A stretch of 64,000 nucleotides of DNA from a virus (taxonomy: Duplodnaviria; Caudoviricetes): positions 32,001-96,000 of the IMG/VR virus record IMGVR_UViG_3300046615_000208; one strand, given 5' to 3'. Of this stretch, positions 9,891-64,000 are shown piece by piece. The notes beneath the pieces were generated by a model. That model was given only the letters and a program-made list of their open reading frames with translations, did not search any database and had not been told where the DNA came from. The translations under genes and the position numbers were made by a program. Each line of letters begins with the position of its first letter. Position 1 is the stretch's first letter.

Positions 9891-11579
9891 ATGGGCGAGA
9901 CTCAAATCCTCAACACGCTCTACAAGGAGCTACGTCTAGACAACTGGTGGAAAGACCTACTAGGCCAACCGGCATCCTATGAAGACTTCGATATCTACAA
10001 GGCAATGGAATCCATTCCGCGTACAGAAGCTTCTGCTGCTGCTGCAATTAGTAAGAAACTGGAAAACTACCTATCGTTCGTAGAACTAACGGGTAGATGG
10101 TACATCTGGGATGCCCGTATCCACACACCGTGTGACGGTGAAGGGATCGCGGTCAAAATCGTCAAACTCTTCTACCAGACACTACGTGACGCCTTGGCTT
10201 TTGTCAAGGACTTCATTACGCGTCAGGCACAGGCCGCACGTGTGGCCGGTGGCGACAAGACAGAAGAGAAAGCTGCTGCTATCATGGCAACATACGAAAA
10301 GGGCGAGTTCTCCAAACACCGCAACTTCCGTGACCGTATCGCAACCGATGCCGGAATCTCTGCCGTAGTCCGCATGCTTCGCACTGAGTGTGACGTACCC
10401 AGCGACTACTTCGAGAACGATCAGCGTTGGTTTGTCATGCGTAACTATGTTCTGGACCTTGATGACCTCCGCAAGTCCACCAAGGACAACTTGGTGTTCA
10501 CCTTGCTGGCGCACTCTCCGGAGAGGCCTGTCACCAAGTACTTCGATGCTGAGTACGTCCACGATGCCAACCTGCACCACTGGGACGGCTTCTTGGAACG
10601 CTCAATCCCTAACAGGGCGATGCGCCGGTACTTGCAAAAAGTTACTGGTGCTGCTATGATGGGGACATCGAAACTGAGAACCATTCCTAACCTGTACGGA
10701 CCTCCGGGTTCGGGCAAGTCAGTATTCATCAATACGATGTTCAAGCTGGGTAAGGAAGGTGCTGGATACGCTTGTATGCCTGACTCTAAGGCCATCATCA
10801 AGGTCTCCGGGCAGAACTTCGAGCAGGATGCCATGCGTAGCCGTAGGTTCATTGGCATCTCCGAACCAAGCCACAGCGAGCACATCGATGATGACTTCCT
10901 GAAGAAGTTCACTGGTGACGTGTGGGTTGAGACCCGTACGCTGAATGTGAAGTCCTCAGGCTGGGTTCCGCAGGGTGTAGTATTTGTTGCGTCCAATAAG
11001 CCGCTGCGAATTAACACCCGCGATAAAGCGATTGTCAATCGTGTACAGTTGATCGAATTCCCCATCGAGTTTCAAGCAGAGATGCCCGGAATGTATGTCC
11101 CGGAAGAGCGTCGTATGATTCTGGACCTCGAAGATTTGATCCTTGCAGACCGCAGTCGAATCCTGTCTTGGATTATCCAAGGTATGATTGATTTCGTGCT
11201 GGACGGCCAAAAGCTGTCTCCGCCCGAAGATGTTGTTGCTAAGCGAAATGAAATTGTCACGGACGCATCCACTGCCCTTCGCTGGGTGGATGAGTACGTA
11301 GATGAAGGATACATCCAACTCAACTTTGACGAGGACATGGACCTGAAGCACTGCATCCCTGTGTCAGACGCCTACAGCGCTTACACACTTTGGGCTGCGC
11401 TTGCTGGCGAGCGTAAGCCGCTGAGTAGGAAATTCTTTACTCAGGACATTGAAAACAAGTTCCAAGAGAAGCAAAAGGATGAAGATGGTGTGTGGAGGCT
11501 CACAGGTTTCGTGATGACCGCCAAATACCTGACCCGTTCCGCAGCAGCCCAGTCTCCACAGGCAGTTGCTCGGTTCTAG
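9891..11579 (+). CDS. D5/P4-alpha-like SF3 helicase
   Basis: W.IWD D5-N-like region, YLQKVTG, GPPGSGKS, ISE, LKKFTGD, ASNKPL, RVQLIEF. Confidence 0.88.
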   Translation: MGETQILNTLYKELRLDNWWKDLLGQPASYEDFDIYKAMESIPRTEASAAAAISKKLENYLSFVELTGRWYIWDARIHTPCDGEGIAVKIVKLFYQTLRDALAFVKDFITRQAQAARVAGGDKTEEKAAAIMATYEKGEFSKHRNFRDRIATDAGISAVVRMLRTECDVPSDYFENDQRWFVMRNYVLDLDDLRKSTKDNLVFTLLAHSPERPVTKYFDAEYVHDANLHHWDGFLERSIPNRAMRRYLQKVTGAAMMGTSKLRTIPNLYGPPGSGKSVFINTMFKLGKEGAGYACMPDSKAIIKVSGQNFEQDAMRSRRFIGISEPSHSEHIDDDFLKKFTGDVWVETRTLNVKSSGWVPQGVVFVASNKPLRINTRDKAIVNRVQLIEFPIEFQAEMPGMYVPEERRMILDLEDLILADRSRILSWIIQGMIDFVLDGQKLSPPEDVVAKRNEIVTDASTALRWVDEYVDEGYIQLNFDEDMDLKHCIPVSDAYSAYTLWAALAGERKPLSRKFFTQDIENKFQEKQKDEDGVWRLTGFVMTAKYLTRSAAAQSPQAVARF

Positions 11580-46843: not shown

Positions 46844-48721
46844 TCCCATTTGGAAGGAAGAGGATGAAGAGAAACACTATTTCAATGTTGCTGGCAATAC
46901 TGCTGGTTATCCCTATCGCACCAGTACTGTATGCACTTCTGGGTGGCGGATTGGTGGGAAGCGTGGCGTGTCTCCTGCTGGGTGTAGTGACTGCCGCATG
47001 CATGATCAGAGCAGTCAACGGGACGGTAGAGGTCTATAACTGGATCAAGCACCGTAACGTACACATAGAAGAGCCTAAGCCTATGCCTGTACCCCAGCAC
47101 ACTGCCTATGAGATCGACTGGACAAAGATCACCAAGGATGATAGACTGTAGTCATGGAAACAGTAGACAAGAGGACCGAAGAGCAGGAAGGCTTTCTTCA
47201 CCTTCAGGAACCGACCAAGTTCGTTGTGGATGACCGCGTGAGCATGTTCGTACAGGATGGGGAGGTTACCTTCATCGACCACGAGACGGGTGATTCCGTC
47301 ACCATGTCCGAATGGAACTTCTCGGAGGTTGACCTCGCCTATCTTTATGTTAGGCTTGAGGAAAAGAATCCAACGCTCAAGGCCAACCGTCTTGAGCGCG
47401 AGGCGTACGAAGCAGAACAGGAGCAGAACAATGATTAGTGCATCGCGCAAGTATGAACTGGAAATGATCGCGGACAATGAGATTCGGTACCGAGGATTCA
47501 ACTCCGGTGAGGCGTACCTCAAGAAGACCTACGCCATCTACGACCTGACGGACGGAGAGGCGCAGGCTGTCAGCTTCCTCATCCGGAACGCAGTCATTGA
47601 TTTCCCGCCATTCCCCCAGCACTTGGTCTGACAACCGCCCACAAGAAAGGTATTACATTTAATGGCAGAACACCTATTGACAGAAAAAGAAGTAACGGGA
47701 TTCCAGACGGGTGACTACGTAGAGTCCTACTACAACGGCTCACGGTACACAGGTGTGTTGGGTGAGATCAACACCCAATGGATGTTCGCACAGTTGCGTA
47801 TGTCTCCGGGAGTTGATATGATCCTCCCGCTGAGTACGATGGCCGTCATCCCGGAAGAGGAATTTGATGAACTGGACGGATAGCGAGAAGAAGCATGCCG
47901 ATGAGGTAGCATGGGACATGGACCTCATGGAACGGGCACGTAAGCTTGTGGACATGGACGATACGGCTTACGACACGCAGACCGTGTTGGAGACAGTGCA
48001 CGAGACTTATCAGGGTGGCATTGTCCAGTTCCACTTGCAGAACCGGTTCTAATGCGTTACCTTGTAAAGAGCAGGATCGTAATAGTAGACCCGTTCGAGG
48101 ACACGCCGGTTATTGCATCAGCCCACCGGTTCAAGTTCTCAGCCCTAGCACAGTCTAGGATGATGAACAAGCTCAACAAAGAGTTCATTATCCAGTGGTA
48201 CGTACTTGACACAAAGACTATGAAGAAGTATGTTTAAGTAACAAGCCAACGCAAAGGAAAGGGACATCATGTTCGTAGCAGGAGACGTAGTAAAGAACAA
48301 GCTCAACAGCAAGCTCGCCACCGTCACTGACGTACTGAAGGGTGACATGATCCGGGTCCGGTTCGATGGGGACACTGGCACGGTCGAACTCCACGCGTCC
48401 CGGTTCCAAGCACATACGGGTCCGAACTTCGAACAGCCGTTCGAACACGTTGATCCCGAGACCTTCAAGAAGGGTGACTACATTCAGGTCACAGACGGCA
48501 ATGGGGTGACCGTCAAGGGTGCCGCTCTTACCGAACTGAACACGTCCGGGTATGCGACCTTCGACCTGCTGACCGATGACGGACGGTACCTTGACTTCAA
48601 CAACAACTACGTCAACGTCAACGTCTTGTTCCGTGCAGACATCGCACGCGGTCAGATGCCTGCGTACTGAGGTTACAAAAAGCGCATATGGTATCATGGT
48701 ATAAGCCTACTAAGGAGAACC

Positions 48722-49390
48722 ATGGTACGACACCGCGCAAACCTACGAGACCGAGTAAGGACATGGTGGGACAAGAAGCCTGTGTCCCCTGTAGTTCTTC
48801 CGATTGTAGGAGGGGTATTGTCAGTCCTGTTGTTGATAGGGCTGGCATTAACCATTCCTCCGATCATCCACGACATCATCACGCCCAAGGTACCGGAGAA
48901 GACTACCCAACAGACGACGCCCACACCGGAGCAGAGTCTTCCGCCTGTGTTGCAGGTGCCTACTACACAGCCAAGCCCTAAGGCCACACAGGAACCTGTA
49001 CCTGTTCAGGCACCACAACCGGTAGCACCGGGGCCTCAGAACATTCCAGAGCCTGTAGCTCCACAGCCAGTGCCCGTACAGCCGGTGCAACCCTTCCAGC
49101 CGCAACCTGTACCGCAGAAACCACAGCCGGTACCTGTACAACCACCGCAGGTACCACAGGTGCCACACCTACCACCGCTACCGCCTCTGTTGCCAGTACC
49201 ACAGCCACTGCCGTTGCCATTACCATTGCCAAGTCTTCCAGAGGTCCTAGAGCCTGTTGTACCACCTATCCTAGGTCCGGTATTGGAGAAGCCACTGGAC
49301 ACACTAGATAAGGCTGTGGGAGGCACGCTGGACACAGTTGATAAGACAGTGGACGGTGTCACCGGAATCGTCGGAGGATTACTTCCATAG
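48722..49390 (+). CDS. Membrane-anchored Pro/Gln-rich protein
   Basis: Single N-terminal TM, long PQPVP low-complexity stalk, C-terminal LD...GG repeats. Confidence 0.7.
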   Translation: MVRHRANLRDRVRTWWDKKPVSPVVLPIVGGVLSVLLLIGLALTIPPIIHDIITPKVPEKTTQQTTPTPEQSLPPVLQVPTTQPSPKATQEPVPVQAPQPVAPGPQNIPEPVAPQPVPVQPVQPFQPQPVPQKPQPVPVQPPQVPQVPHLPPLPPLLPVPQPLPLPLPLPSLPEVLEPVVPPILGPVLEKPLDTLDKAVGGTLDTVDKTVDGVTGIVGGLLP

Positions 49391-49452
49391 TTACAAGAAA
49401 CGCTTAGAGGCATCAGCTTGCGTAGCTGGTGCCTCTTTGCTATTCTAGAGGC

Positions 49453-49986
49453 ATGAGAACGAAATGCGTACTTTGTAACTGTCGGATCAAAGACCGCCAC
49501 GCGGAACGTAAGACCTGCTCTACCGAATGCCGAAGCTCGTACAAGTGGAAGATGCGGACCATGGCTAAACACCACGACCGAAGCACTTCCGGTCAGCGCC
49601 CCAGCTTCAAGCCCGAAGACTGGACAAGCATCCTGAACAGGCATGGCAGGCGTTGTGCGTACTGCGGTACCAAGAAGGGGAAGATGACAATGGACCATGT
49701 CCTACCGCTCTCACGTGGCGGACGACACTGTGTCTCCAACGTCGTCCCTGCTTGCGGCCAGTGCAACAAGACCAAGGCTGACATGACCCTCATGGAGTGG
49801 AAGCGGAAGAACCTGTACGATCTGCGTCCGTGGACCATGACCACCAACGGGATCAAGATGAAGCGAGCCAAGTCTGGTAAGCTGAACTCCACTCCGCTCT
49901 TCGAGCAGATGCTGAGGGAGATGGCTGACAGGGCGCTTCTGGAGAAGTACCCGCTGACAGTTGACTACACTGACATACTGGTGTAA
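49453..49986 (+). CDS. HNH endonuclease
   Basis: CAYCG...MTMDHVLPLSRGG...SNVVPACGQCNKTK; N-terminal CxxC...CSTEC; leaderless ATG 49453 after TTGCGT/17 bp/TATTCT. Confidence 0.85.
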   Translation: MRTKCVLCNCRIKDRHAERKTCSTECRSSYKWKMRTMAKHHDRSTSGQRPSFKPEDWTSILNRHGRRCAYCGTKKGKMTMDHVLPLSRGGRHCVSNVVPACGQCNKTKADMTLMEWKRKNLYDLRPWTMTTNGIKMKRAKSGKLNSTPLFEQMLREMADRALLEKYPLTVDYTDILV

Positions 49987-51036
49987 GCTGGAGGTAAGAC
50001 TAGAGAAAGGACAACTTATGTTCGGGCGCAACAAGGGTAGGGGTTCCTATCCTGACCCGCCACAGGAGGCACCACGCCAGCGTATGCGGGCCTCATTCGG
50101 TGGCAGTAGGGGAGAGGATGTAATCTCCCGTAGGCTGGACCGACAGGACCCGGTACCGACTCCAGAAGAAAAGTCTGCGGCACTGGAAGCAATCATCAAC
50201 GCTGTACGTACAGCACAGGAACTGGGAGCATCACCGCACGAGGTTGACTCCGCTGTTCGTGGGTTCAACGTAGCAGTTACAAGAAACGCACAGGAAGGAT
50301 ATAACAATGGCGGACTACTACCCGAAGAGCCGTACGGATCACATCGCCAAGGCGATGAAGCTGGACCCCATCAAGGAGGAAATGGCTTCTAAGATTTACG
50401 CCGAACGGTACTCCGACTGCTTCTGCCGAGAGGATCACGACATCAATCCGCCGTGCGGGTCTGTGGTGTGGGCACGAAAAAAGGTGGATGAAATCTTGGC
50501 AATCGCAGAGAAAGCTGGTATGCTGAAGTCATGAAACAGCGAGTAGTAATCCAAGACCTGCACAGTGCCACCATGCCAGTGATCACAGAAATGATCGTGT
50601 CTGACGTCCAAGCCATAACAGGAGACCTGATCCGGTTCGAGCATGATAATGGTAGCGTTACCATCATCAACATCGCTTCGGGCTGGAATGTCTCCATCTC
50701 CGAATATGATGAAGACTGATATGAAGATCATGCGGAGCAACTACGACAAGGCGCACCGTTGTCCCGGATGGGCAGGCCCAGCCCTCAAGGGCATCGAGCC
50801 GTCCATCTGCGCCAGTGGGTCCTTTGCCAAAGAGTTCCACATCCAGCAGTACTGGTATAACAAGGACCCGTACTGGCGCTTCCATAAGTGCCGCACGTGT
50901 GGTACGGTTGTACTCCCCAGCAACTTCCGTAAGTTCGATCCGGTGTGGTGGAAGTTCGCCGCTCAACGGAAGTGGGACAACTGGAAGTACGAACGAGAAC
51001 TTGACAAACGGAACAAGAACAACCTAGAATAGGAAC

Positions 51037-51423
51037 ATGATGAAGAAACTTATTATTGCAGGCGTTATCGCCATTGCCGCTTTCTCGCTGACCGGCTGTC
51101 AGAACCTCGTCCAGAACGAACCGGTTGTGTGTACGGTGGTGGACAAGGACCGATCAACCGAATCCTCGAAGAACGGTTCCAAGTCCGTCTTCCGTATCTA
51201 CACCGAGAACTGTGGTGAGGACAACGAGACGCTGGGTCTTGCCGACAACATCTTGCAGGGCAACTTGCGCTCGTCGGACATGTACGCCAAGATCAAGGTA
51301 GGCGAGACCTACCGGTTCGAGACCGTAGGTATCCGTAACGGAGCCTTCTCATCCTTCCGCGAGATCGTACGGTTCACCAAGGTGTCGGCACCAGTGCCGG
51401 GAATGACGGAGCCTGCCAAGTGA
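51037..51423 (+). CDS. Lipoprotein
   Basis: MKK-hydrophobic-LTGC lipobox. Confidence 0.75.
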   Translation: MMKKLIIAGVIAIAAFSLTGCQNLVQNEPVVCTVVDKDRSTESSKNGSKSVFRIYTENCGEDNETLGLADNILQGNLRSSDMYAKIKVGETYRFETVGIRNGAFSSFREIVRFTKVSAPVPGMTEPAK

Positions 51424-51644
51424 CCAAGCTCCAGAAGATCATCAGCCTTACGGCGGCGTTCGTCCTCATGGTAGGCTTGAGTGCCTGTGCCACTGACGGG
51501 ACAGTATACAACGCGGACAAGACGTACGAGTTTACAATGACCATGAATGATGGTACGGTTGTACCATGCATCAAGCACGAGGACTTCTACGGGTTCGCTT
51601 GCAACTTCGACAAGGCAGTCCGGTCCAACACACCGAAGCCATGA
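51420..51644 (+). CDS. Small lipoprotein
   Basis: Signal peptide with LSAC lipobox. Confidence 0.65.
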   Translation: MTKLQKIISLTAAFVLMVGLSACATDGTVYNADKTYEFTMTMNDGTVVPCIKHEDFYGFACNFDKAVRSNTPKP

Positions 51645-54342
51645 CCGAAGACGGGACTTTCGAAAAGGGAGACCGTGTCAAGATCAACGCTCCGAAGGAG
51701 ACCTGCCACGGACGGACTGGCGTAGTTGACAACTACACCGAGTCTGGTAAGCTCATCTACGTAACCACTCAGACCGGCAGGGTCTGGGTGTATCCGTGGG
51801 AGATAGCCCTACACAAGGAGAGGTAGCAATGTACAAAGAAGGCGACAAGGTCCGCATCATTGCCAAGGATGATTCCGAGTACGGCAGGGTATGTCCTGTT
51901 CACGGTATGTCCGGAGACCACACCGTGTGGGTCAACGTAGGGTTCGGTATGGCTTGGCGCTACCGACCCGATGAAGTAGAAGCAGTAACCGACAACCAAG
52001 AAGGAGAATAGACAATGGCACGATTCAATGGTAAGCAGTACAAGGGTGCGCAGAAGGCACTCAAGGAAATCCGCCGAGAAGAGGCAGAGAAGCGTGACGC
52101 GCAGACCCTGCCCGAGAACCGCCGTCAGGCGCGTCTTACAAAAGACGCATAGCTCGACCTCATGCGGCTACCGTGTTGACAGCAGCACGGTGGCCGTATA
52201 AGCTTTAGCTACAAGATCAAATCAAACCGAAAGGGAAGATCATGAAGTTTGCAGTCGGAGACAAGGTAACCATCAAATCCGCGAGCAAGACGTGGAGCGG
52301 GGTACGTGCCGTGGTTAAGGAGCATGATTCCGAAGAGAAGATGTACCCGTACACGCTGACCCTGATCGATGATACCAGTACCGGATCGTACAAGAGCGGC
52401 GATACCGCCGAGGCATTCCGAGAGGATGAACTGGTGGCGATGGCTGACGTGGTTGCGGCAGACATCGAGAAGGCCAAGCAACTGCTCCAGAAGCACGGTA
52501 TCCCCTTCCGCATCTACTCTCGCGAGGACGTGGACAAGATGCTGAACGTGTACGAACAGGACCCGAACGATCCACTGGATACCCGTACGTTCCGCAGTGA
52601 GATCGCCGCCTTCATCATGGAGGGGCAGGACTGGAAGAATCTCTCTGACAAGGGGCAGGACGACGAGGCCGCTATCTGGGACATGGTAGAGGGTGCACGT
52701 AACGATCACCCGGAATGGTTCGTGAACTGATGGCACGGATGAGTTTCACGGTTGAGGCCGTGGGTGAGAAAGTACGACTAAAGCAGGAGGACGGTACCTA
52801 CACGGACTTCTCCCCTGCTCCTGCCAACCAGATGGCAGGAGGTTTAATTAAGGCGGCGATGGAAGCAAACGGGCAGATACCCCCGAAGGCACTTACGATC
52901 ACGTTTCACTTCGAATAGTTACAAGAAACGCATTTGACACCCCCGACCGAGGAAGGTAGGCTGTAGGTATGAAGACAGACGGAACACCAGAGACCGAGTT
53001 CGAAGAGGCCATGCCGCTGCTCGCCGCTATCGTAGGGCAGAACGCACGTGACCTCCAGTGGACTAACGACCAACTGCTGGCAAGCAAGGAGCGACAGCTT
53101 CGCCAGATGCAACAGGACTACGTGAAGCTGTACGCGTCCATGCAGAAGGTGGCAGAACGTACCGACTCCGCCACTGCCTACAGCGCACTGGACAGGTTCT
53201 GGCACGTGAACGAAGATGCCAAGAAAGAACTTGCCAAACCGGATGATGTGTACTAGACTGGTATTACACCAAGCGAAAGGAAAAGAACATGTGGCAAGAT
53301 AAGCTTAAGTTCAGCGTCGGAGACACCGTCAAGATCGTCCGGGACAACAAGGTCTGGAACGGATCGGTGGCAAAGATCGCGGCAATCACCAACGACGCAC
53401 GGTACCCCTACCTGCTTCACTTCATTTCCTCATCGCGGCCCAACACCGTGGGCGAGAAGTTTGAGTGGGACGAGGAATCGCTCGACCGCCATGACATGAA
53501 CCAGCGTGTCAAGCTGGAGCGGATCATTGCGGAGAAGTTCTCCCATCCGGTAGATGTGTTCTACTCACCGACTACCGGCTGTGCGGTAGTCATGGCACCG
53601 AACGGATACCTGTTCCGTATCCTTGCCGATGGGACCATCGACAAGTGATGTGTAATGAATGCAAGTTAGACAACGGCTGGCACCACGTAGAGTGTAGTCA
53701 AAAGGTATCCATACTCTGGACCACTACACTCACCAAATAAATAGAACCGACCCGAAGGGCCATCCACTTGACAGTGAGTGGCCCTTTGTGTATGCTAGAG
53801 ATATGAAGAAAGCATGGCAGTACCGTAAAGGTGTAGTCCTCATTAAGGGAGACACCGACCCGCTGTTGTCCGCTACGCTGACCAAGGTGGGCTGGAACAA
53901 GTGGCGGCATCACTACTACAGGCAGACCGACCCCAACCTAGACGGCTGGGAGATACGGACTGACAAGCATGTTCAGACACTAATTGACAACAGAGCAGTG
54001 GAGAGGGTAGTGTAGAGATATGAAGAAGCCAAGCAGATACCGTGTCGGATCAGTGTTCATCTACAACGCAGGTCACCCGATGTTCGAAGCCACTTTGTCC
54101 AAGGTAGGACCGGACCACTGGATGAAGGTCAACCACAAGAGCAAGGTCCGCCAGTACTACAGTAACAAAACGGTAGAGGACCTGTTCGCTACCAAGCTGT
54201 TGACTCTGATTCATGACTCTGGTAAGGTGGAGCGGTAGGTTGACAAGGGTGCGGTAAGTGTGTATATTATCTACTTCCAAGGTTTACGGTATAATAGAGG
54301 TAGAAGCACAATCCTCTAGATACTAAAGCACTAGGAACTAAG

Positions 54343-54942
54343 ATGTCAGAAAATCCCTTCCTGTCACCCCCACCGCCCCCTCCGTTCAACCCCGAGGACA
54401 CTACCGTTGTGTCCCGAAGTGCCGGAAAGAACTCTGCCGCAGAGCAGGGCCAGAACATCCCAATGGGATGGAAACCGACAGCCGCAGAACCCGTTGCCGT
54501 AATTCGTTGCACCGGTACCGCCAGCACTACGGGTGAGCAGTGCAAGCGTTGGAGCCTACGTGGCACCAACGTCTGCACTAAGCACGGTGGACAGCTACCG
54601 TCAGTCCGTGAGCACGCCGAGGCGGTGGTGGAATCAGCCCGCATGAGGTTGATGGGAATGGCTGACGATGCCGTAGACGGACTGGAAGACCTCATTGCTA
54701 TCGGCACTGCGCCACAGATTCGGCTTGCCGCTATCAAGGAAGTTCTGGACCGCTCAGGCGTGAAGGGTGGACCCGACCTATCCGTTGAGGTCACGCACTC
54801 CGTATCATACAAAGACGAAATCTTCAACCGCCTCAAGGAAATCAAAGAGCGCAAGGAAGCCATGGAGAAAGAGAAGGCTGCAATCCTTGGAGAAGATATT
54901 GTTGATGCCGAGGTAGTTGACGAAGCCGAAGAAACCGAGTAA
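54343..54942 (+). CDS. Probable terminase small subunit (HGG-type Zn finger)
   Basis: RCTG..STTGEQCKR...GTNVCTKHGG, then helical RLAAIKEVLDRSG, C-terminal DIVDAEVV. Confidence 0.6.
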   Translation: MSENPFLSPPPPPPFNPEDTTVVSRSAGKNSAAEQGQNIPMGWKPTAAEPVAVIRCTGTASTTGEQCKRWSLRGTNVCTKHGGQLPSVREHAEAVVESARMRLMGMADDAVDGLEDLIAIGTAPQIRLAAIKEVLDRSGVKGGPDLSVEVTHSVSYKDEIFNRLKEIKERKEAMEKEKAAILGEDIVDAEVVDEAEETE

Positions 54943-55330
54943 GCTGTAGCCATGGAAGATAATGTAGAGGATGGGACCGAGGGCGGCTACACCGCTTCTG
55001 CGGAAATCCCACCAGAAGAGCTAGAGAAGATGCGGCGAATGCGCCCGCAGTTTTTCACCGACAACATTGACGAGCAATACGACGAGGCCATGGAACTCTT
55101 CGGAGGCAAACCGATCCCCAAGATCGGAGAGCCTGCCGAGTACATCATCACCGACCGAAACATGGTGCCGTCCCTCTCCGAGGCCTACCGTAAGGCCCTC
55201 ATCGAGAAGTACGGGCACATCCCCGAACTGAACGAAATGGTTGCGGTGGACGAGGAACCCGACGACTAGTTACAAGAAACGCACAGCGGCTCCACTTGAC
55301 GGTGGGGCCGTTTGCATGTAAGCTGTAACC

Positions 55331-55957
55331 ATGAACACATTCAAAGAAGGCGACCGTGTCTCCCACCCGAACTACGGAGAGGGTACCGTTACCAGTCCTT
55401 ACCCCGGAACCGGATGGCCTACCGTTCGGTTCGACACCGATGGATTGATCTCGACCGATGCTTCCCTGCTGACACCGGTACGGGCAACTCCTGCCCCACT
55501 TTTCAAGACAGGCGACCGCGTCATTCATCCGCTCCATGGTCCCGCTGGTGTTCTCGGATACGATGCGGCCCGTAAGCTGGTGGAGATCGTGCCGAACACG
55601 TACGGTGGGAACTCCACTCACGTCCATCCGTCCAGCTTGACACTGGCCGAACCGCCCACTAAGTTCAAGGTAGGAGACCGAGTCTCCCACCGCATCCACC
55701 GTGACGGTACCGTGGAAGACATACAGGCCAACGGGTTGCATGTCGTGAACATCGGCGGTAACCGTGTCTACATGGCACTGGAACACCAGATCAGCCATGC
55801 GGTACCGGAACCGACCTACCACATCTGCATCGAAGAGATTACCGGTGCCGCTCATGTTCCCGGTAGCCTTACCGCAAAAGAAGTTGCCAACTACATCGAG
55901 CATGCGCTAGACTGGCGGGTAGCTAAGGAAATCACGATCACCAAGGAAGGAAACTAA
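55331..55957 (+). CDS. Triple Tudor-like (CarD-RID/PcrA-CTD-like) repeat protein
   Basis: FKEGDRVSHPNYGEGTV, FKTGDRVIHPLHGPAGV, FKVGDRVSHRIHRDGTV. Confidence 0.6.
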   Translation: MNTFKEGDRVSHPNYGEGTVTSPYPGTGWPTVRFDTDGLISTDASLLTPVRATPAPLFKTGDRVIHPLHGPAGVLGYDAARKLVEIVPNTYGGNSTHVHPSSLTLAEPPTKFKVGDRVSHRIHRDGTVEDIQANGLHVVNIGGNRVYMALEHQISHAVPEPTYHICIEEITGAAHVPGSLTAKEVANYIEHALDWRVAKEITITKEGN

Positions 55958-57595
55958 TGACCGTCTTCCACAACCCTCCGAAGCCCGGAGACGAGGTCAC
56001 CCTGCTGGCCTACGTCAACACCGCCATCAACGACTTCGAACTCTCTCCCGGTGATACCGCTACCGTGTCCCGTATCGACGGGGACGAAATCTACCTTGAC
56101 GTGGTCTACACCTCAGCACACGCCAACTCACCCTATGCCGGTGAACATGAGGACTGGTTCACGGTCCCGTTTGACGAGGCCGACGAATACTTCGCAGGCA
56201 TCATCCGGATCGAAGAGTAGAGTTACAAAAAACGCATAGAAAGGAACAGCATGGAAAATGAATTTGGAGAGAACCCGTCCTTCTACATCTGGCCCGAGGG
56301 CCACGAGGAAGGCACCGCCTATCCGGAGGACTTCGATGAGCGGCTAGCCCGAGCGCTCGCGACTGAAGGTCTGGACTACGAACGGGTCTAGTTACAAAAA
56401 ACGCATAGCGGTCACGGTTTACATCGTGGCCGCTTTTGTGTATATTAGAGGCATGGAGACATTCAAAGTAGGAGACAGAGTTATCTTCCGTCCGTCACAG
56501 GGCGAGGCGCTAGACGCTACCGTGACAGATGTATTCGGTACCGCCGAAGCGTTCGGCGGATCATACGGAATCAATCTGGACGAACCGTGGGCGGTCATTG
56601 GTGGCGAGACCGAGACAGCCGCTCACGGTATGGAACTTACAAAAAACGCATAGTTGACTTAACCGACCCGAGAGGCTAGACTCAAACCATGGACATCAAG
56701 ACAACCGCAGTATGGATCAATCCCGACGACGAGTTCACCGATGAGATGGGCCACCGCCACAAGGCGCTACGGATCGACCGTGTCGAACGGACGGACGGGT
56801 ACTACGTCTACGTGGAAGGTCAGGGCTACCCTGAATTCTACCTGCGCACGCATGCGGTCACCATCCACGTCCCCGATACCAAGTTCCAACCGGGTGACTG
56901 GGTCACCGCCCGATCCGGTAAGGGTGACGTGTACCAGATCAGCCGTGCCTTCAAGGATCGTTGGGGGAAGACCTACTACGTGTTCGACAACGGATCGGTG
57001 GATATCCGCAAGCGGAACCGCTCCGGTTGGCACGAGGCAGAACGGGCCAACAAAGGTTACAAAAAACTCTTAGACTCGTAAGTTGCATTCCACCGACCGA
57101 GAGGGTAAGCTAGAACCATGACACATTACCTAGACCCTACGGGTGCCGTGTACTGCGGTGCGGTACTGGGACCGGATGACACCCCGGACACCATTGATTC
57201 TCCGCTTCCCGCTCACGAGGTCTGCCGCGAGTGCGACCGTCTAGCCTCCGCTTAGTTACAAAAACCGCTTAGGAAGGAGCAACATGAGTAAGAAACGGGC
57301 ACCGTTCAGTCTGGACCTGAACCTGAAGCTAGCAACCGTCAACCGGGATACGGATACGTCTATGTCCATTGACTTCTGGGACCGCAACGATGAGCAGGTG
57401 GCTGTGATCAATTCCAGCCCCGCCCAGCTTCAGGCGTTCGCTCTTCGCATCCTCCAGCAGGTCCAGTACAACCTAGAGGACCGGGAGAAGTAGTTACAAA
57501 AAACTCTTAGACCGATAGGGTTGACAAATTTAATACGGGTGCCGTAGTGTTGTCCTCATCAACCGAAAGGATAGCACTACCGAAAGGACCCCGAA

Positions 57596-57976
57596 ATGTC
57601 AACTCCACTCCCTCCCCAGTACGCACCGTTCCAGTCCCAGCCTCAGCCTCCCGCACCGAAGAAGCGGTTCAACTGGAAGCTGGCGCTGGCCATCTTCGCC
57701 GCCGTCCTCATTGGCGGGGTCATCGGGTCCGTGTCCAATCCCGCACCGCCCCCGGTGGTGCAGGTACAGGAGAAGGAAGTGGAGGTGGAGAAGGAAGTCA
57801 CCCCGGCCTCCTGTCTTGAGGCTCTGGACCTCAACGAGGAAGCTTTCAGCTACCTGTCCGACTCATTGAGTTCCACCGCAGATCAGAATTACACCGCCGC
57901 ACGCCGATCAACCGACAAGGTGGTGGCACTGGTACCCAAGGTCAACGCCGCAAAGGCCGCTTGCCGAGCCAAGTAG
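57596..57976 (+). CDS. Single-TM membrane protein with paired Cys
   Basis: Pro-rich N-terminus, KKR + TM segment, TPASC...AAC. Confidence 0.65.
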   Translation: MSTPLPPQYAPFQSQPQPPAPKKRFNWKLALAIFAAVLIGGVIGSVSNPAPPPVVQVQEKEVEVEKEVTPASCLEALDLNEEAFSYLSDSLSSTADQNYTAARRSTDKVVALVPKVNAAKAACRAK

Positions 57977-58686
57977 TTACAAGAAACGCTTAGCTCTCCT
58001 GACTTGCACCGACCGCACCGATGCGGTAAGCTGTAATCACAAGCCAAACGGAAAGGTTCACATCATGTCAAACACCACACCGCAGGAACTGAACGAAGCC
58101 TACGAGGCAATCACCGCATCCGACAACCGTGCCAACGTTGGCCGTTCAGACGCGATCTACCACGTCGGGAAGCTCATGACCGGAGATTGGGCACCGGAGT
58201 TCGTGTCCGACCTTCAGGCCGGGATCGCGGACACCGCCGACTACGACTACGATGCACGGTACCACTACGGCTACCTGACCGCGTGGAACACCGTCGCCGG
58301 TCTGCTCAAGGGCGAACCGCTCAAGACCATTGCCAAGAACCACGGCTAGGGGAAACCGATGCTTATTTCCAAGGAACTCGAAGGGGCCACCGTAGAGCGT
58401 ATCTACTGGGCCGTACCGCCCAACACATGGATTCCTACCATCGGTGAGAAGTTCGACAGCTTCCGGGAGGCAGGAGACCACGCGCTCAAGATGGTCGATG
58501 GAGGCCGTGACGCCCTTATCATCAATCGTGTGGTCTTTCGGAAGCCGAACGGTACCACCGTTGACATGGAAGTCGGACGGGAACGACGGTTCGCGTAGTT
58601 ACAAAAACCGCTTAGCTCACAGGACTTGCAGCCGAACCGCTGATGCGGTAAGCTGGTAACACAAGCCAACCAGAAGGAGAAACAAA

Positions 58687-59004
58687 ATGGCAAATCTCAA
58701 GTTCACCCCCCAGTCCCACGAAGAAGCTGCTAAGGTCCTGTCGTTCCGGGACTCGCTGATCATCGGCCACAACACCGAACTCCGCCGTCTAGGGGATGGT
58801 TCCATCGTTGCCACGTACCACGGCAACAGCATCGTACGGTACACCACTGAAGGTGTGTTCGCCACGTACGCAGGATGGGCCACCTCCACCACCACGAACC
58901 GCCTGAACCAGCTTGCACCGGCACGGTTCAACATCAAGAACCGGGAGCCGCAGATCAACGGTAAGACGCTGGAAGACTGGTCCGAATGGGTCAAGGTCAG
59001 CTAG
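58687..59004 (+). CDS. Hypothetical protein (cassette cargo)
   Basis: AAGGAG RBS; TAG stop fused to motif copy 59004. Confidence 0.75.
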   Translation: MANLKFTPQSHEEAAKVLSFRDSLIIGHNTELRRLGDGSIVATYHGNSIVRYTTEGVFATYAGWATSTTTNRLNQLAPARFNIKNREPQINGKTLEDWSEWVKVS

Positions 59005-60953
59005 TTACAAAAAACGCTTACCGTATCCGTTTGCTTCCCGCTTACGGATGCGGTAAGCTTGTTTTATCAGCCCAACCGATCCGAAAGGCACACAATGCAA
59101 ACCGACACACCGTCACCGTTCACCGTAGTAGGTGCCGCCGTATACGATGCGGCTACGGATACATTGGAGGAACCGAACCGATGGGAGTCAGCCGGTAAGC
59201 TTCCCGCCGACCGTGCCCTCCACGTCACGCACGAGTACCGGGACACGCTGTGAACCAGAAACAGCGGGACGAGTTCTGGAAGGATGCGGCAGAGTATACC
59301 GGAGCGATACCGTACTACCGTTTCCACGACGAGTGGTATTACCTTGTCACCGATAGCGGATACACGCCGGTAGACGAGTACACGCTACGGGAGGCGCTGG
59401 ACCTGTTCCACGACGTTACGGACGGCGAGAACTGCGCCGTCTACCTCTACCGTGGCGGTGACCATCTGGCCACCTACAACGGCGGACAGTCCGATCCGGA
59501 GGGTGAAACCACCTACCACGTTACAAAAAGCGCATTGCCGGAATGGCTTGCGGCGCTGGCCGGAAGAGTGTAGGCTGTAGGTATGAGGATAGGAAAAGCC
59601 ATCCTGAAGGAACGGATCGAAACCAAGATCGAAGAGTACCGTGAGTCTAGGGTACAGAACTATGATCCCTATCTGGATGGCATCATGGACGGTCTGGAAT
59701 TGGCTCTCGATATTCTCGAAGAGTCCTGACTACTGAGAGGTAACACCATGTTCAAGAAAAGCAAGATCACCATCTGGACTGACGGACGGTTCGCACGCAC
59801 GGAGTTGGGCGAGTTGGAAAGCGTGGAGGACGTACAGTCCGACATGACGCATGACCGCCAGTCGCATGCCATGTACCCGTCTACTCTCGCCATCGAAGAG
59901 ACCGCTACCACTCTCGTTGTGGTCAAGGAGTCCGGGACGGTTCACGTCTACAACTGGTCCAAGGACTAGTTACAAAACACGCTTAGCATCCATCTTGCAT
60001 CTGGTGCGGATGGGTGCTAAGCTTGTGTTAACAGCCAATCGAAAGGGCATCCAATGATCCGTCCAGTCGCACCGTCCGTTCCCGCAGACTCCACCAAGCC
60101 GGAAGACATCAAGGCATGGGACGACTACTACGCCGCTTGCGAAACCTATGCGGACATGTTGAAGCCTTGCATGGATCGTAGTTGGGATGGCGGCTGGTAG
60201 TTACAAAAAGCGCATCACCGCTAGGTTTGACAGCCTAGCGGTGATGCCGTAAGCTTTAGTTATCAGCCAAACCAACCGGGAGGAAAAGAAATGATGCAGT
60301 TCTCGAAAACCACCATCCAATCCGCAGCCGATGACGTAGCACGATCCGCAGACATTGAACTGGTGTTCAACCAGTCCGACCTTTTCGTGATCGCGGATAG
60401 CTCGGAAGCGATCAACGAGTTTGAGACGCGTCTCGCGGCTCACACGGTAGTCTGGGAGGGTCCGACCGCCTTGGACGCCGCAGGCATGTTGCGGACGCTT
60501 ACGGACTTGCAGGGCGAGCGTGCCGAGTTCCGTCCCCGCCACACCGAGGGGTGGCAAGCCCGATACAACATCGTGGCCCGGTAGTTACAAAAGACGCATA
60601 GCGGATCGCCTTGACAGGTGGTCCGCTGTGCCATAGACTGGAGTCACCAACAAGCCAAGGAGGCCACAATGTCTTTCCCGTTCACAGCAACCGCCGTAAC
60701 AACCGTCATCATGGGTGACAACATACCCGCCCACGACGAGACGCTAGACCTTGCCGAGACCATCGGCCAAAAGCTGGACGAGTTCCGCGAGTACATCACC
60801 AGCGTACGGGACGCGGAACAGGCCCACGATGCGGTAAAGGAACTCCTAGCGGCTCTGCTGGAAGAGGCCAGCAAGTAGTTACAAAACACGCATAGCGGTC
60901 CCAGTTGACACTGGGGCCGCAGGTGTGTATACTGGTAGTAGATGGTAAGCCAT

Positions 60954-61026
60954 TGATATCGGCCCTGTAGCGGGGTCGGGGGGAAGGCCCACCCTAAACG
61001 CGTTTCGGCCCATTATTTTTGGGGTC
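60954..61026 (+). ncRNA. Structured non-coding element, copy A
   Basis: Downstream of TTGACA 60905/TATACT 60928, no plausible ORF; homologous to 63269-63327(-). Confidence 0.5.
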
Positions 61027-61215
61027 TCCCGGTGACCCTGCCCCGCTCCTTTGCGGCTCCGCTTCATACCTTGATTCTTTCACATTTTTGCGCCGGATGC
61101 AAGTCCGGAGCGTTACAAGAAACGCATTGTGATTTGGGTTTGCATGTGGCGTACGTATGCCGTAGAGTATTCATATCGGGTTCATCCGGAACCCCTCAAG
61201 CCTTGGAGGTCTCCC

Positions 61216-61845
61216 GTGGGCGCACCCCGTATCGGTAACGTTCTGAACGTTCCCACTAAGCGTGTTTATGCCGCTAACCCTAACTCGGCCCGTATCGTGG
61301 ACGTATGGCGGCAGGCTACCGTCTCTGAGCTTGTGGAGGGTATGGAATGGTACAAAGACGCGCACGCGCTCGCCGTCCGTCTCTCCCCTGCTGATCCGGC
61401 GCAGGCCGCTGGCGTTATCGCCGCGCTGTCTCCCATGATGGCATGGGGACAGAATGTCAATCTCGCCGTACGTGCCTATGCGGACGGTAAAGCATCCGGT
61501 GCGCTCTTTAGCAACGTTGCTAAAGCCAACCGTATCCTGTCCGGTGAGCGTCCGGAGGACGTACTGGGCGGCGATAAAGTACGCGCATTCTATGGCGTGA
61601 TCGCTAACCCTACGTCGGATGCGGTTGTCGTTGACCGGCACGCGTTTGACATCGCTGTAGGCCGCGTGACTAACAATGAGACGCGGCAGGCACTGGGCCG
61701 TAAGGGTGTCTATGAATCATTCGCTAGCGCCTATGTGCGGGCAGCTAAGACCATTGCACGTGAGACTGGCATGGATGTATCCGCCAGTCAGGTGCAGGCC
61801 GTTACGTGGACGGTATGGCGCAGGCTCAAGGGACTGGCCGAGTAG
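61216..61845 (+). CDS. Phage protein with HhH-GPD/EndoIII-like motif
   Basis: GGAGG RBS + GTG 61216; EWY, IAALSP..W..N, GDKVRAF, VVVDRH, QVQAVTW. Confidence 0.5.
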   Translation: MGAPRIGNVLNVPTKRVYAANPNSARIVDVWRQATVSELVEGMEWYKDAHALAVRLSPADPAQAAGVIAALSPMMAWGQNVNLAVRAYADGKASGALFSNVAKANRILSGERPEDVLGGDKVRAFYGVIANPTSDAVVVDRHAFDIAVGRVTNNETRQALGRKGVYESFASAYVRAAKTIARETGMDVSASQVQAVTWTVWRRLKGLAE

Positions 61846-61940
61846 TTACAAGAAACGCATAGGCGGCAGGACTAGACACCCTGCCGCTTATGCCATAGAC
61901 TTTATTCATCGGAACAATCCGAATCACTTAGGAGGCCACC

Positions 61941-62300
61941 ATGGCAAGCATCGCAGAAACTCTTCTCACTCGCACGGCACGCGACGGCGGCGTGACTGTC
62001 TCACTCGTTAGCGGCGACGTTGCCGCCCACACATCGGGCTTCTACGTCGGCGGACGCGTCACTGAGACGCTGGTGACGGACCCCTCAGACATCGGTGACT
62101 ACCTGTCTGCCGTCTCCACCATTACGCGGCGTGCTGGCGGCGTAGGCTACATCGGCGCATGGAAGAACCACGAAACGGGTATGGTGCACGTGGATGCATC
62201 GGATCACGTGGAAGACTTCGGTTCCGCCGTACGGATCGCGCAGGAGCGCGGCGAACTGGCGATTTGGGAGATCGCTGGCGGGACCGAATTCCGGCTCTAG
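61941..62300 (+). CDS. Hypothetical protein (cassette cargo)
   Basis: AGGAGG RBS; TAG stop fused to motif copy 62300. Confidence 0.75.
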   Translation: MASIAETLLTRTARDGGVTVSLVSGDVAAHTSGFYVGGRVTETLVTDPSDIGDYLSAVSTITRRAGGVGYIGAWKNHETGMVHVDASDHVEDFGSAVRIAQERGELAIWEIAGGTEFRL

Positions 62301-63224
62301 TTACAAGAAACGCATAGCGGGTTGGCTTGCGGACGGTAAGCCAACCTGCTAATCTTGAACCATAAGCAAGGCCCAACAAACCAAAAGGGAGTTACAAAAT
62401 GCGCGTTGTAAAAGAAACTGCACTCATTGGGGAAGCCATGTTTTTTCTGGCCGCTCGCTCCAAGGCTGTCGGCGGCGTTACGGCAGGCGTGGAGTCTGCC
62501 AGTAACGACAAGGTACCGGCCAAATTCCACGGCGAGTACGTGGTGACGGGCAACGGCGGACGTTGGGAGTGTACCAACCTTGTTCGGGCCGTGGTGACGC
62601 TTAGGAGCGTCCGGAATGCCGAGAACCTGTGGCAGATCAAGGACGGCAAGCGGACGCGTCTGGCGTACAGCTAGCGGTTACAAAAAACGCATACGGGCAG
62701 GACTAGACACCCTGCCCGTATGCGGGTAAGCTTGGACCATACCAACCGAAAGGAACACAATGAAAGACTTTTCTGAGCTTATGGTTGCAGTTCTTGCCAT
62801 ATTCCCCGAAGCTACGGTGGAACAGGATCGATACGGGCAGATAGTGATCCACACTAACCTTACCGAAGACGGTAAGGGTGGTTTCGCACCGTTTCAGGTA
62901 CTGGAAGAGTACGGCGACTAACTACAAAAAACGCTTAGGGATAGGACTTGCATCTAGCGGTCCCATCCCCTAGAATTGAAGTATCAGCCAAACAACGGGA
63001 GAGGAACCCAAAATGGATTGGATCACTGTAACACCGGCTTACGGACGCGACTACAAGAACCAGAAGGACGCGGCGGCAGACTGGAACGCCAATCTCGATT
63101 TCCGCGAAACATCCACCGGCCAGTACACAAACAAGGCCGACTGCCAGCGGATGGGAAAGAAGGTCATCATCCGCTACGGGAAGCTCATGAAGACCATGCA
63201 GGCCCCAATGAAGTAGCCGACTTA

Positions 63225-63260
63225 CAAAAGACGCTTAGCCGAAAGGCTAAGCGTCTTTTG
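63225..63260. terminator. Bidirectional terminator built from two head-to-head motif copies
   Basis: CAAAAGACGCTTAGCC-GAAA-GGCTAAGCGTCTTTTG, perfect 16-bp stem. Confidence 0.8.
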
Positions 63261-63268
63261 CGTGTTGC

Positions 63269-63327
63269 GGCCTAAAAAATAAGGCCAGACTCGGCCTTCC
63301 CCGCCACCCGTCTCAGGGCGGCTATCA
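63269..63327 (-). ncRNA. Structured non-coding element (or 18-aa mini-ORF), copy B
   Basis: Downstream of minus-strand TTGCAT (63379-63374)/17 bp/TAAGCT (63356-63351); homologous to 60954-61026. Confidence 0.5.
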
Positions 63328-63624
63328 TGTGGGCCTTCCGGCTTAATACAAGCTTAGCACCTATCGGATGCGGATGCAAGCCTACAAAAAACGCATTGGG
63401 TGTTGCGGATGCGCTCGCATGCGTGTACGCTTAGGGTATGGCAACCCAACTAGACATGGTACAGCGTATGTTCGCTAATGGCGGCGTGACCTGTCCCATC
63501 AGTGGCGACAGGATCGCTACGGCTAAGTCTGACCCTCCCAAGCTGTCAGAGATAGTTGACTGGGAAGCGGATTCATACTACCGTGGAGTAGGGCAACCCA
63601 AAGAGACAGTTAGGAGCTAGGACA

Positions 63625-63909
63625 ATGGCAAACTACACGCGGACCCAGTTTACTCGACTCGGAGACTTCGGAGTCTCGGAGGAATGGCGTACGGAGACAC
63701 AGCCCAGCGCCACGCTGGCGTACGTGGATCACTACAACGGCGCTATCAGTACCGCGCAGGTTTTCGACCCCGCTACGGGTCACACGCGGACGTACCCGTT
63801 CCGTTCCAAGGATCGGGCAATGGCCATTGTGGAGCGTCACCTAGAACGCAATGGTTACAAAAAATGCGTAGAGTTCCGCGACTTGACAGGCAATGTCTCG
63901 GAGTACTAA
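63625..63909 (+). CDS. Hypothetical protein whose C-terminus reads through motif and next promoter
   Basis: GYKKCVEFRDLTGNVSEY* spans motif 63854 and TTGACA 63883. Confidence 0.7.
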   Translation: MANYTRTQFTRLGDFGVSEEWRTETQPSATLAYVDHYNGAISTAQVFDPATGHTRTYPFRSKDRAMAIVERHLERNGYKKCVEFRDLTGNVSEY

Positions 63910-64000
63910 GCTCTAAGTGACAACCACCTAGGAGGCGGACCATGGCACGCAAACCACGCGCTAGCGAAGTAGCTACAAGAAACGCATTCTTGGATTATTT

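Follow-up and report, generated by a model that had tools for sequence, protein, structure and literature searches.

A candidate family of structured small RNA genes in large phages of Actinobacteria

What is encoded by two short homologous elements that face in opposite directions across 2.3 kb of phage DNA? They lie in a stretch of 64,000 nucleotides (here called the window), which makes up bases 32001-96000 of the 171,752-bp IMG/VR virus record IMGVR_UViG_3300046615_000208 (CheckV completeness 99%). An initial annotation, made from the letters alone, offered two readings of the pair, namely a phage small-RNA family or inverted DNA signals bracketing the enclosed segment, and every sequence feature that it quoted for copy A (plus strand) and copy B (minus strand) is present where it was placed. 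Our comparison with related phages favors the former: the two copies very probably belong to a real family of stand-alone small RNA genes, as judged from an alignment of 19 members in which two hairpins covary, a fixed distance to promoter-like boxes and the lack of any Rfam match. On this comparative evidence, which supports it strongly, the RNA family is a previously uncatalogued one; it is absent from Rfam, and a search of the literature found no description of it.

Two predicted RNA genes and their relatives

Both copies follow a common plan: a 5' hairpin (P0) is joined by a GAYA linker to a second hairpin of 7 bp (P1), and the purine block GGGGAAGG (GGGRWAGR) then leads into a terminator hairpin (P2). 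Copy A, or RNA A, belongs to a subtype that we call type A, and copy B, or RNA B, to type B. Their predicted parts, read from the sequence with any further support in brackets, are as follows.

60905..60933, plus strand: promoter-like boxes of RNA A, TTGACA-17-TATACT (promoter scan, 11/12)
60941..61020, plus strand: RNA A, type A, no start codon, ~80 nt (covariance model R1, 58.5 bits)
60942-60953, plus strand: P0 hairpin of RNA A
60954, plus strand: start of TGATA in RNA A, with the linker GAUA at 60955-60958
60959-60979, plus strand: P1 of RNA A (arms 60959-60965 and 60973-60979)
60980-60989, plus strand: purine block of RNA A
60986-61010, plus strand: irregular P2 of RNA A, with an 11-nt insert in its loop
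61013-61020, plus strand: U-run of RNA A
63351..63379, minus strand: promoter-like boxes of RNA B, TTGCAT-17-TAAGCT (8/12, under the scan threshold)
63274..63346, minus strand: RNA B, type B, ~73 nt (R1, 81.6 bits)
63342-63333, minus strand: P0 of RNA B, with a GGAA loop
63332-63323, minus strand: linker of RNA B, with an AUG; TGATA from 63327
63322-63303, minus strand: P1 of RNA B (arms 63322-63316 and 63309-63303)
63302-63293, minus strand: purine block of RNA B
63298-63281, minus strand: terminator stem of RNA B, then a U-run at 63280-63274 (terminator-like site called by the scan)

The boxes upstream of RNA A recur unchanged, at -35 and -10 and at the same distance, in the relatives G002 and L018. 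Those of RNA B are weaker, are kept in three relatives (L006/G002, L008 and L018), and diverge from the promoter of the next plus-strand gene cassette. The terminator scan called no terminator-like site at RNA A, the 3' end of which is poorly defined. A 17-nt core shared by the copies occurs exactly twice in the window and likewise exactly twice in the whole 171,752-bp genome, and a repeat search lists the copies as an inverted pair (I6).

Relatives were found with degenerate patterns on the top of P1 and the purine block, applied to IMG/VR and JGI metagenome contigs; after removal of chance pattern matches, covariance model R1 was built and used for searching. The resulting family occupies 19 places (20 sequences counting phage Racecar) in at least seven uncultured soil-phage contigs and three cultured phages of Arthrobacter globiformis, namely Mimi, Talia1610 and Racecar. 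By terminase comparison, these three and Atuin are also the closest cultured phages to the present one (192-194 kb; ~52% amino-acid identity), with Microbacterium phages of ~190 kb next. Most genomes with the family carry two copies, distributed as follows (DTR, direct terminal repeat).

G000 (this genome): A on the plus and B on the minus strand, inverted (R1)
G002: A on the plus and B on the minus strand, inverted (R1)
G001: B and A both on the minus strand, direct (R1)
G003 (DTR-complete): B and A both on the plus strand at ~49-50 kb, direct (R1)
G004 (fragment): one true R1 match, close to the contig end
L017: two copies on the same strand, direct
L018: B on the minus strand plus a divergent A on the plus strand, inverted
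L003, L008, L011, L013, L016: one copy each
Mimi: one locus, 10128-10196, minus strand (R1, 45.8 bits), with an identical repeat at 182788-182856 in the terminal repeat

Talia1610 is identical to Mimi at the RNA locus and Racecar is 93% identical. No copy was found in Atuin, DSL-LC01, Cece or Big4, and the weak R1 matches in Atuin and Cece were dropped, that in Atuin lying within coding sequence. Pattern matches L005, L009, L012, L014/L015, L019 and L021-L023 were likewise discarded, as each was coding or had no promoter, no P0 or no complementary stem. Furthermore, the strict pattern had no match in 185,579 bacterial and archaeal species genomes.

No known family accounts for these loci. Megablast and blastn of the region, at near and distant settings, gave no match in 50,697 phage records. 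Rfam 15 gave none in the 64-kb window at the gathering score and none in four related loci at E<=1; at E<=10 over window positions 60800-63500 there were two chance-level matches only, neither of them over the RNAs. ARAGORN reported no transfer RNA (tRNA) or transfer-messenger RNA (tmRNA) in the window, although it works on this phage, as seen from the 42 tRNAs and one tmRNA (tag AKNDFALAA) that it detects outside the window in the first 24 kb of the genome (1703-23993). The covariance-model search of Rfam and phage genomes that the initial annotation had called for thus produced no Rfam match but did produce further covarying homologues in other phages.

Covariation, subtypes and the coding question

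The case for a structured transcript begins with P1, which is paired in all 19 sequences of structure alignment A4, derived from model R1 (100% of 133 cells). Across these sequences four of the seven P1 pairs have undergone compensatory double changes, bearing out the earlier observation that the first stem covaries, and the fourth pair is G.U in 19/19. Six stem variants occur: UCGGCCC/GGGUCGG, GCCGCCC/GGGUGGC, GGGGCCC/GGGUCCC, GGCGCCC/GGGUGCC, UCGGCCA/UGGUCGG and GUAGCCG/CGGUUAC. Between Mimi and Racecar the innermost P1 pair flips from C-G to A-U despite 93% identity. When the 3' partner is slid by one to three columns, pairing falls to 23-59%, and RNAalifold independently predicts P1. The 11-pair structure of P1 and P2 together has a covariation score of 0.34 versus 0.10 in shuffles, with 0/500 shuffles reaching 0.34, in a control that ignores the relatedness of the members.

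P0 offers a second line of evidence. At least nine unrelated sequences all form a 3-6-bp hairpin here, often with a GNRA-type loop, ~8 nt past the -10 box, and the promoter-like boxes themselves stand at a fixed distance from the RNA in 17 of the 19 copies. The mean folding z-score of P0 is -2.2, and Fisher's combined p is 8e-10 over 16 leaders that are not fully independent. At this spacing, P0 would lie at the extreme 5' end of the transcript. At the other end, most members carry a short G+C-rich P2 hairpin that takes in the end of the purine block and is followed by a U-run. Between the two, the conserved middle comprises GAYA, the upper four P1 pairs including G.U, the first two loop bases and GGGRWAGR. 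A kissing contact between the P1 and P2 loops (AGAC with GUCU, type B) could form in some members, and was set aside since it is not conserved in the alignment. In the clade of G001, G003 and L017, a palindrome, TTGCAAAAATTGCAA, directly follows the 3' end of each RNA (L035 6213-6227 and 7456-7470; L017 342 and 1875; L037 6922) and is rare elsewhere there; in G001 it falls within the T-run of the convergent gene's terminator.

The placement of the RNAs in relatives further suggests independent genes. The protein genes of the G001 region all run on the plus strand; the two RNAs occupy gaps between them on the minus strand, with promoters divergent from that of the next gene and 3' ends back-to-back with the terminator of the previous one. 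In G003, G004 and L017 the RNAs likewise oppose all neighboring genes, and only copy A and its orthologues in G002 and L018 share the strand of their neighbors. Because they run antisense in the gaps between protein genes in relatives, the RNAs are best viewed as self-contained units, not leaders. The initial annotation had placed each copy in a cargo position behind a canonical promoter; this description suits copy A, whereas copy B, like most of the relatives, forms a unit of its own that runs counter to the neighboring genes.

Whether the RNAs might encode peptides turns on the subtypes. In type A the P1 loop is 7 nt long, UGNNGCG, and the linker is directly GAYA; in type B the loop has 6 nt, UGAGAC, and a longer linker ends in AUGAUA. 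In all eight type B copies the P0 loop resembles a Shine-Dalgarno (SD) sequence and stands 5-7 nt ahead of this AUG. The open reading frames (ORFs) that follow span 18, 18, 24, 24, 76, 18, >80 and 54 codons and share only their first 12 codons, which are the RNA core, and the differences found there are compensatory stem changes. Four type A copies lack any ATG, GTG or TTG in the first 45 bases, the stretch examined. The 18-codon ORF of copy B and the in-frame TAG of copy A are as first described. The stop codon of the RNA B ORF falls after the U-run; more generally, every type B copy has its in-frame stop at or past the terminator U-run (window copy 63274-63329, minus strand), and a terminated type B transcript, if translated, would therefore be a stop-less mini-mRNA. 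The subtypes also swap positions: L017 holds type A twice, and the position taken by type A in G001 is filled by type B in G004. Because type A has no start codon, the types are positionally interchangeable and only the RNA core is shared, the family as a whole is, by sequence comparison, non-coding. The earlier suggestion that conservation operates at the level of nucleotides and structure is supported and extended by these comparisons.

Weighing the explanations

Taken together, the members display what is expected of generic terminator-ended small RNAs, with promoter-like boxes, a covarying body, a terminator-like 3' end and no conserved ORF. The explanation that we favor, with a probability of roughly 0.6, is that they are paralogous genes for stand-alone structured RNAs of ~70-80 nt, which may be recognized by a protein and act in trans. 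Host RNA polymerase would start at the sigma-70-type promoter, 1-3 nt ahead of P0, which may protect the 5' end, and P2 with the U-run would terminate transcription. The functional module would consist of P1, in which the upper stem is invariant, together with the purine flanks and the first two bases of the loop. It would most likely be read by a phage or host protein, because conservation extends to the sequence of the helix and is not confined to the single strands. As a mode of action, protein recognition is put forward tentatively. The RNA would then act in trans early in infection, as a regulator or a decoy and not via long antisense pairing. In a rather speculative version, the RNAs would be expressed early as decoys and bound by a host or phage RNA-binding protein in place of the hairpin that is its natural substrate, which could be a defense-system RNA, for example a CRISPR-repeat-like or other guide or antitoxin-type RNA. 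If so, they would be the first RNA-based counter-defense or takeover factor described for phages of Actinobacteria, and subtypes A and B would cover two variants of the target.

Several observations weigh against this picture. The promoters and terminators are consensus matches, and protein recognition is deduced from what is conserved. Folding energies of single sequences are unremarkable (z -1.3 for copy B and +0.8 for copy A), so that support comes from sequence comparison and not from thermodynamics. The 3' end is variable, as in the clade of copy A the P2 loop has its 11-nt insert and P2 is irregular, and in G003 and L003 a 50-60-nt extension ends in a strong terminator. The SD-like P0 loop and AUG in 8/8 type B copies are left unexplained by a purely non-coding model. 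Lastly, all members come from one fairly narrow clade of large phages of Actinobacteria (Arthrobacter-type), in which the compensatory changes represent perhaps 6-8 independent events.

A 5' hairpin, conserved single strands and an intrinsic terminator are also found together in many bacterial small RNAs, and a classic trans base-pairing small RNA would use the linker (ACAUGAUA in type B, where it is conserved across lineages; AGAUA in type A) or the purine block to pair with host or phage mRNAs and alter their translation or stability. We consider this unlikely. The 10-nt purine block has no complement in the phage genome outside the two RNA genes themselves, complementarity to the rRNA operons of Microbacterium and Brachybacterium reaches at most 9 nt (chance level), the stretches of single strand that members share are very short (in type A, 4-5 nt), and the upper P1 helix and its G.U pair are invariant, which seed pairing does not require. 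Action in cis, quite improbable in our view, could take the form of antitermination, as with HK022 put or lambda nut, or of convergent units that, as roadblocks or by antisense transcription, insulate or silence the enclosed genes. Like putL/putR and nutL/nutR, the elements are two homologous promoter-proximal hairpins per genome; in most genomes the pair flanks a small gene block, and copy A precedes the block of a DUF7178 gene described below and shares its strand. However, the opposed orientation of the RNAs in G001, G003, G004 and L017, where they end back-to-back with the terminators of their neighbors, leaves no co-directional operon to antiterminate, each G003 RNA finishes in a strong terminator, and selection on the structure of P0 and P1 points to an RNA product, not to the act of transcription alone.

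That the type B loci might be genes for tiny proteins, or deliberately stop-less mini-mRNAs, with type A as decayed paralogues, seems very unlikely to us. The SD-like loop, AUG and frame of at least 18 codons in 8/8 type B copies would suit such genes, as would the investment of the phage in translation, evident in its 42 tRNAs and own tmRNA. Yet the 12 shared codons coincide with the RNA core, the stem changes replace amino acids (A to G, A to P), the ORFs vary in length between 18 and >80 codons with the stop always at or past the U-run, and type A, conserved at least as well, has no start codon and can replace type B. A type I toxin-antitoxin system was rejected, since an ORF is present only in type B and is variable past codon 12, and since A and B are same-sense homologues, not complementary. 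For a role as a sponge of the actinobacterial 6C small RNA, a search with RF01066 gave no match in four Micrococcales genomes, with control genomes that themselves barely registered.

The elements might lastly function as DNA, whether as inversion sites, terminus or packaging sites, or origins primed by short G-rich transcripts, and this we regard as extremely improbable. The copies are inverted around 2.3 kb in the clade of the window, and a G-rich transcript followed by an A/T-rich run superficially resembles an R-loop origin. Nevertheless, relative orientation is inverted only in G000, G002 and L018 and direct in G001, G003 and L017, which rules out inversion or terminus sites. The positions are also internal, at ~49-50 kb in DTR-complete G003 and ~10 kb inside the terminal repeat of Mimi; the bracketing signals of the initial annotation are thus contradicted by both orientation and location. 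Compensatory changes in the hairpins and the fixed promoter distance argue instead for a transcript, and the composition of the window (~53-57% G+C) shows no change along its length that would mark the RNA sites.

Hardly any work on the small RNAs of actinobacterial phages is known to us. As three cultured SEA-PHAGES isolates (Mimi, Talia1610 and Racecar) carry the RNA, its function is directly testable, and the family offers an entry point into the use of RNA by large lytic soil phages in host takeover. It also corrects the annotation of these isolates, in whose records the locus is labeled as a small hypothetical protein only. Such a protein is annotated opposite the RNA strand in Mimi (MN234211.2, 10137-10286, gene 21) and Racecar (MN234206.2, 10692-10844, gene 22), where it spans the RNA gene and its convergent partner, and gene 21 of Talia1610 also lies under the match. 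The hypothetical proteins at all three loci are probably over-calls.

Neighborhood and comparison with known systems

Both copies lie inside an array of small plus-strand genes that begins at ~48.6 kb and in which a TTACAARAAACGC box, a hairpin and a promoter come after each gene. Most of these genes have the box behind their stop codon (window 48673-63985; 34 matches versus 1.7 expected). In L008 and L018 the RNA hairpin adjoins a neighboring box, the reverse complement of which provides the U-run. Read on the minus strand, the joints of the array (e.g., 62688-62724) combine the hairpin with a reverse-complemented TTACAARAAACGC box and score as intrinsic terminators (16-bp stem, TTTTTTG); they may thus be one-way terminators that could halt antisense transcription yet pass sense transcription. 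The 11-nt insert in the P2 loop of copy A (window 60994-61008) and of its orthologues in G002 and L018 is a palindrome, AAACGCGTTTC, half of which is complementary to GAAACGC of the cassette box; judged from the sequence, it would be either a remnant of recombination at the box or a box-pairing site.

The RNAs co-occur with syntenic genes, namely a DUF7178 gene (61216-61845) and genes for a 105-aa protein (58687-59004) and a 67-aa protein (63013-63216); the neighboring small proteins have no informative Pfam or PHROG match. Two further features adjoin RNA A.

61216..61845, plus strand: DUF7178 gene (Pfam PF23802, E 6e-52), the commonest RNA neighbor in related phages by synteny
61030..61102, minus strand: u1 unit, of another small family and convergent with RNA A (comparison with three other genome copies)
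61102-61074, minus strand: promoter-like boxes of u1, TTGCAT-17-AAGAAT, with a predicted RNA start near 61067, running into the 3' flank of RNA A

The predicted model of the DUF7178 protein (predicted local distance difference test score, pLDDT, 91) has HhH-GPD DNA glycosylases as all of its best structural matches, with the 8-oxoguanine glycosylase Tm1821 at the top (Z 11.3, 170 residues aligned). Further matches are MagIII, Mag1, AGOG, EndoIII, OGG1, MutY and the queuine-salvage enzyme DUF2419, and a D-R-H motif at residues 140-142 is invariant. From this model, DUF7178 is probably a base-excising or nucleoside-hydrolyzing enzyme. A search of bacterial genomes for its relatives, as a route to the host, found none, and on the distant DUF7178-bearing contigs L054-L057 the RNA is absent within 4 kb of the gene.

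Other units of the u1 kind lie at genome positions 103312 (minus strand), 105629 (plus strand) and 106258 (minus strand). They start with AUGAAGC, continue with a conserved GGGUC-loop-GACCCC hairpin and an A-rich run, and have their own promoter; the equivalent unit of Mimi has no AUG. In G002, L018, L013, Mimi and Racecar an antisense hairpin is kept 3' of type A copies, and as in the window a unit of this kind converges there on the 3' flank of the RNA. In one clade the u1 unit overlaps the 3' end of type A, the sole overlap of the RNA genes.

How do these RNAs compare with known systems? In arrangement, the closest are put of HK022 and nut of lambda, also two homologous hairpin RNA elements just past early promoters, and as in those phages the two copies of this window are opposite in orientation. 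put consists of two stems with defined bulges, and nut of boxA and a boxB pentaloop hairpin. The 7-bp stem and 6-7-nt loop of P1 differ, as read from the sequence, from the 5-bp stem and GNRA-like pentaloop of the boxB type, and no boxA was seen at the RNA elements. put and nut precede long operons and act on their own polymerase, whereas the window RNA units stop at their own terminator and in most relatives face convergent genes; in G001 no co-directional operon follows, both RNAs being antisense to all flanking genes and abutting their terminators.

In core layout the best likeness is of another kind. A few nucleotides, a 7-bp hairpin and an 8-nt handle form the layout of class 1 CRISPR repeats. 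Racr are reported to be anti-CRISPR RNAs, each built from a single CRISPR repeat unit (Camara-Wilpert et al., 2023; PMC10651486), and they come closest to the present core, a solitary promoter-driven phage unit with a few nucleotides, a 7-bp hairpin and an 8-nt purine handle. The family likewise has one or two solitary copies per genome, with promoter-like boxes at a fixed distance, and its conserved helix sequence fits recognition by a protein. Unlike Racr, the core is 33-34 nt long and has the extra hairpins P0 and P2. No CRISPR-repeat counterpart emerged from the strict pattern (0 matches in the 185,579 genomes), a tandem-unit pattern resembling a CRISPR array gave only single chance-like matches among the 120 listed for bacterial genomes, and no anti-CRISPR (acr) genes were recognized near the RNAs.

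Neither Rfam families, tRNAs, the operon context of put and nut, a type I toxin-antitoxin pair nor inversion sites describe these loci, and we class the finding among phage small RNAs, which does not make it a system of a new type. It is nearest in kind to the stand-alone phage small RNAs, such as lambda OOP and the species 1 and 2 (band C and D) RNAs of T4. To our knowledge, the function of the T4 RNAs is still unknown. Like these, the RNAs described here would be short, abundant-looking transcripts made by the host polymerase from a phage promoter, with a hairpin and U-run at the end, encoded among early genes and sometimes antisense to their neighbors. They bear no sequence or Rfam relationship to them, and where OOP is a cis-antisense RNA on cII, the window RNAs lie in intergenic gaps and, but for the u1 overlap noted above, share no bases with a gene; unlike OOP and the T4 RNAs, they are found in phages of Actinobacteria, each genome having two paralogous forms.

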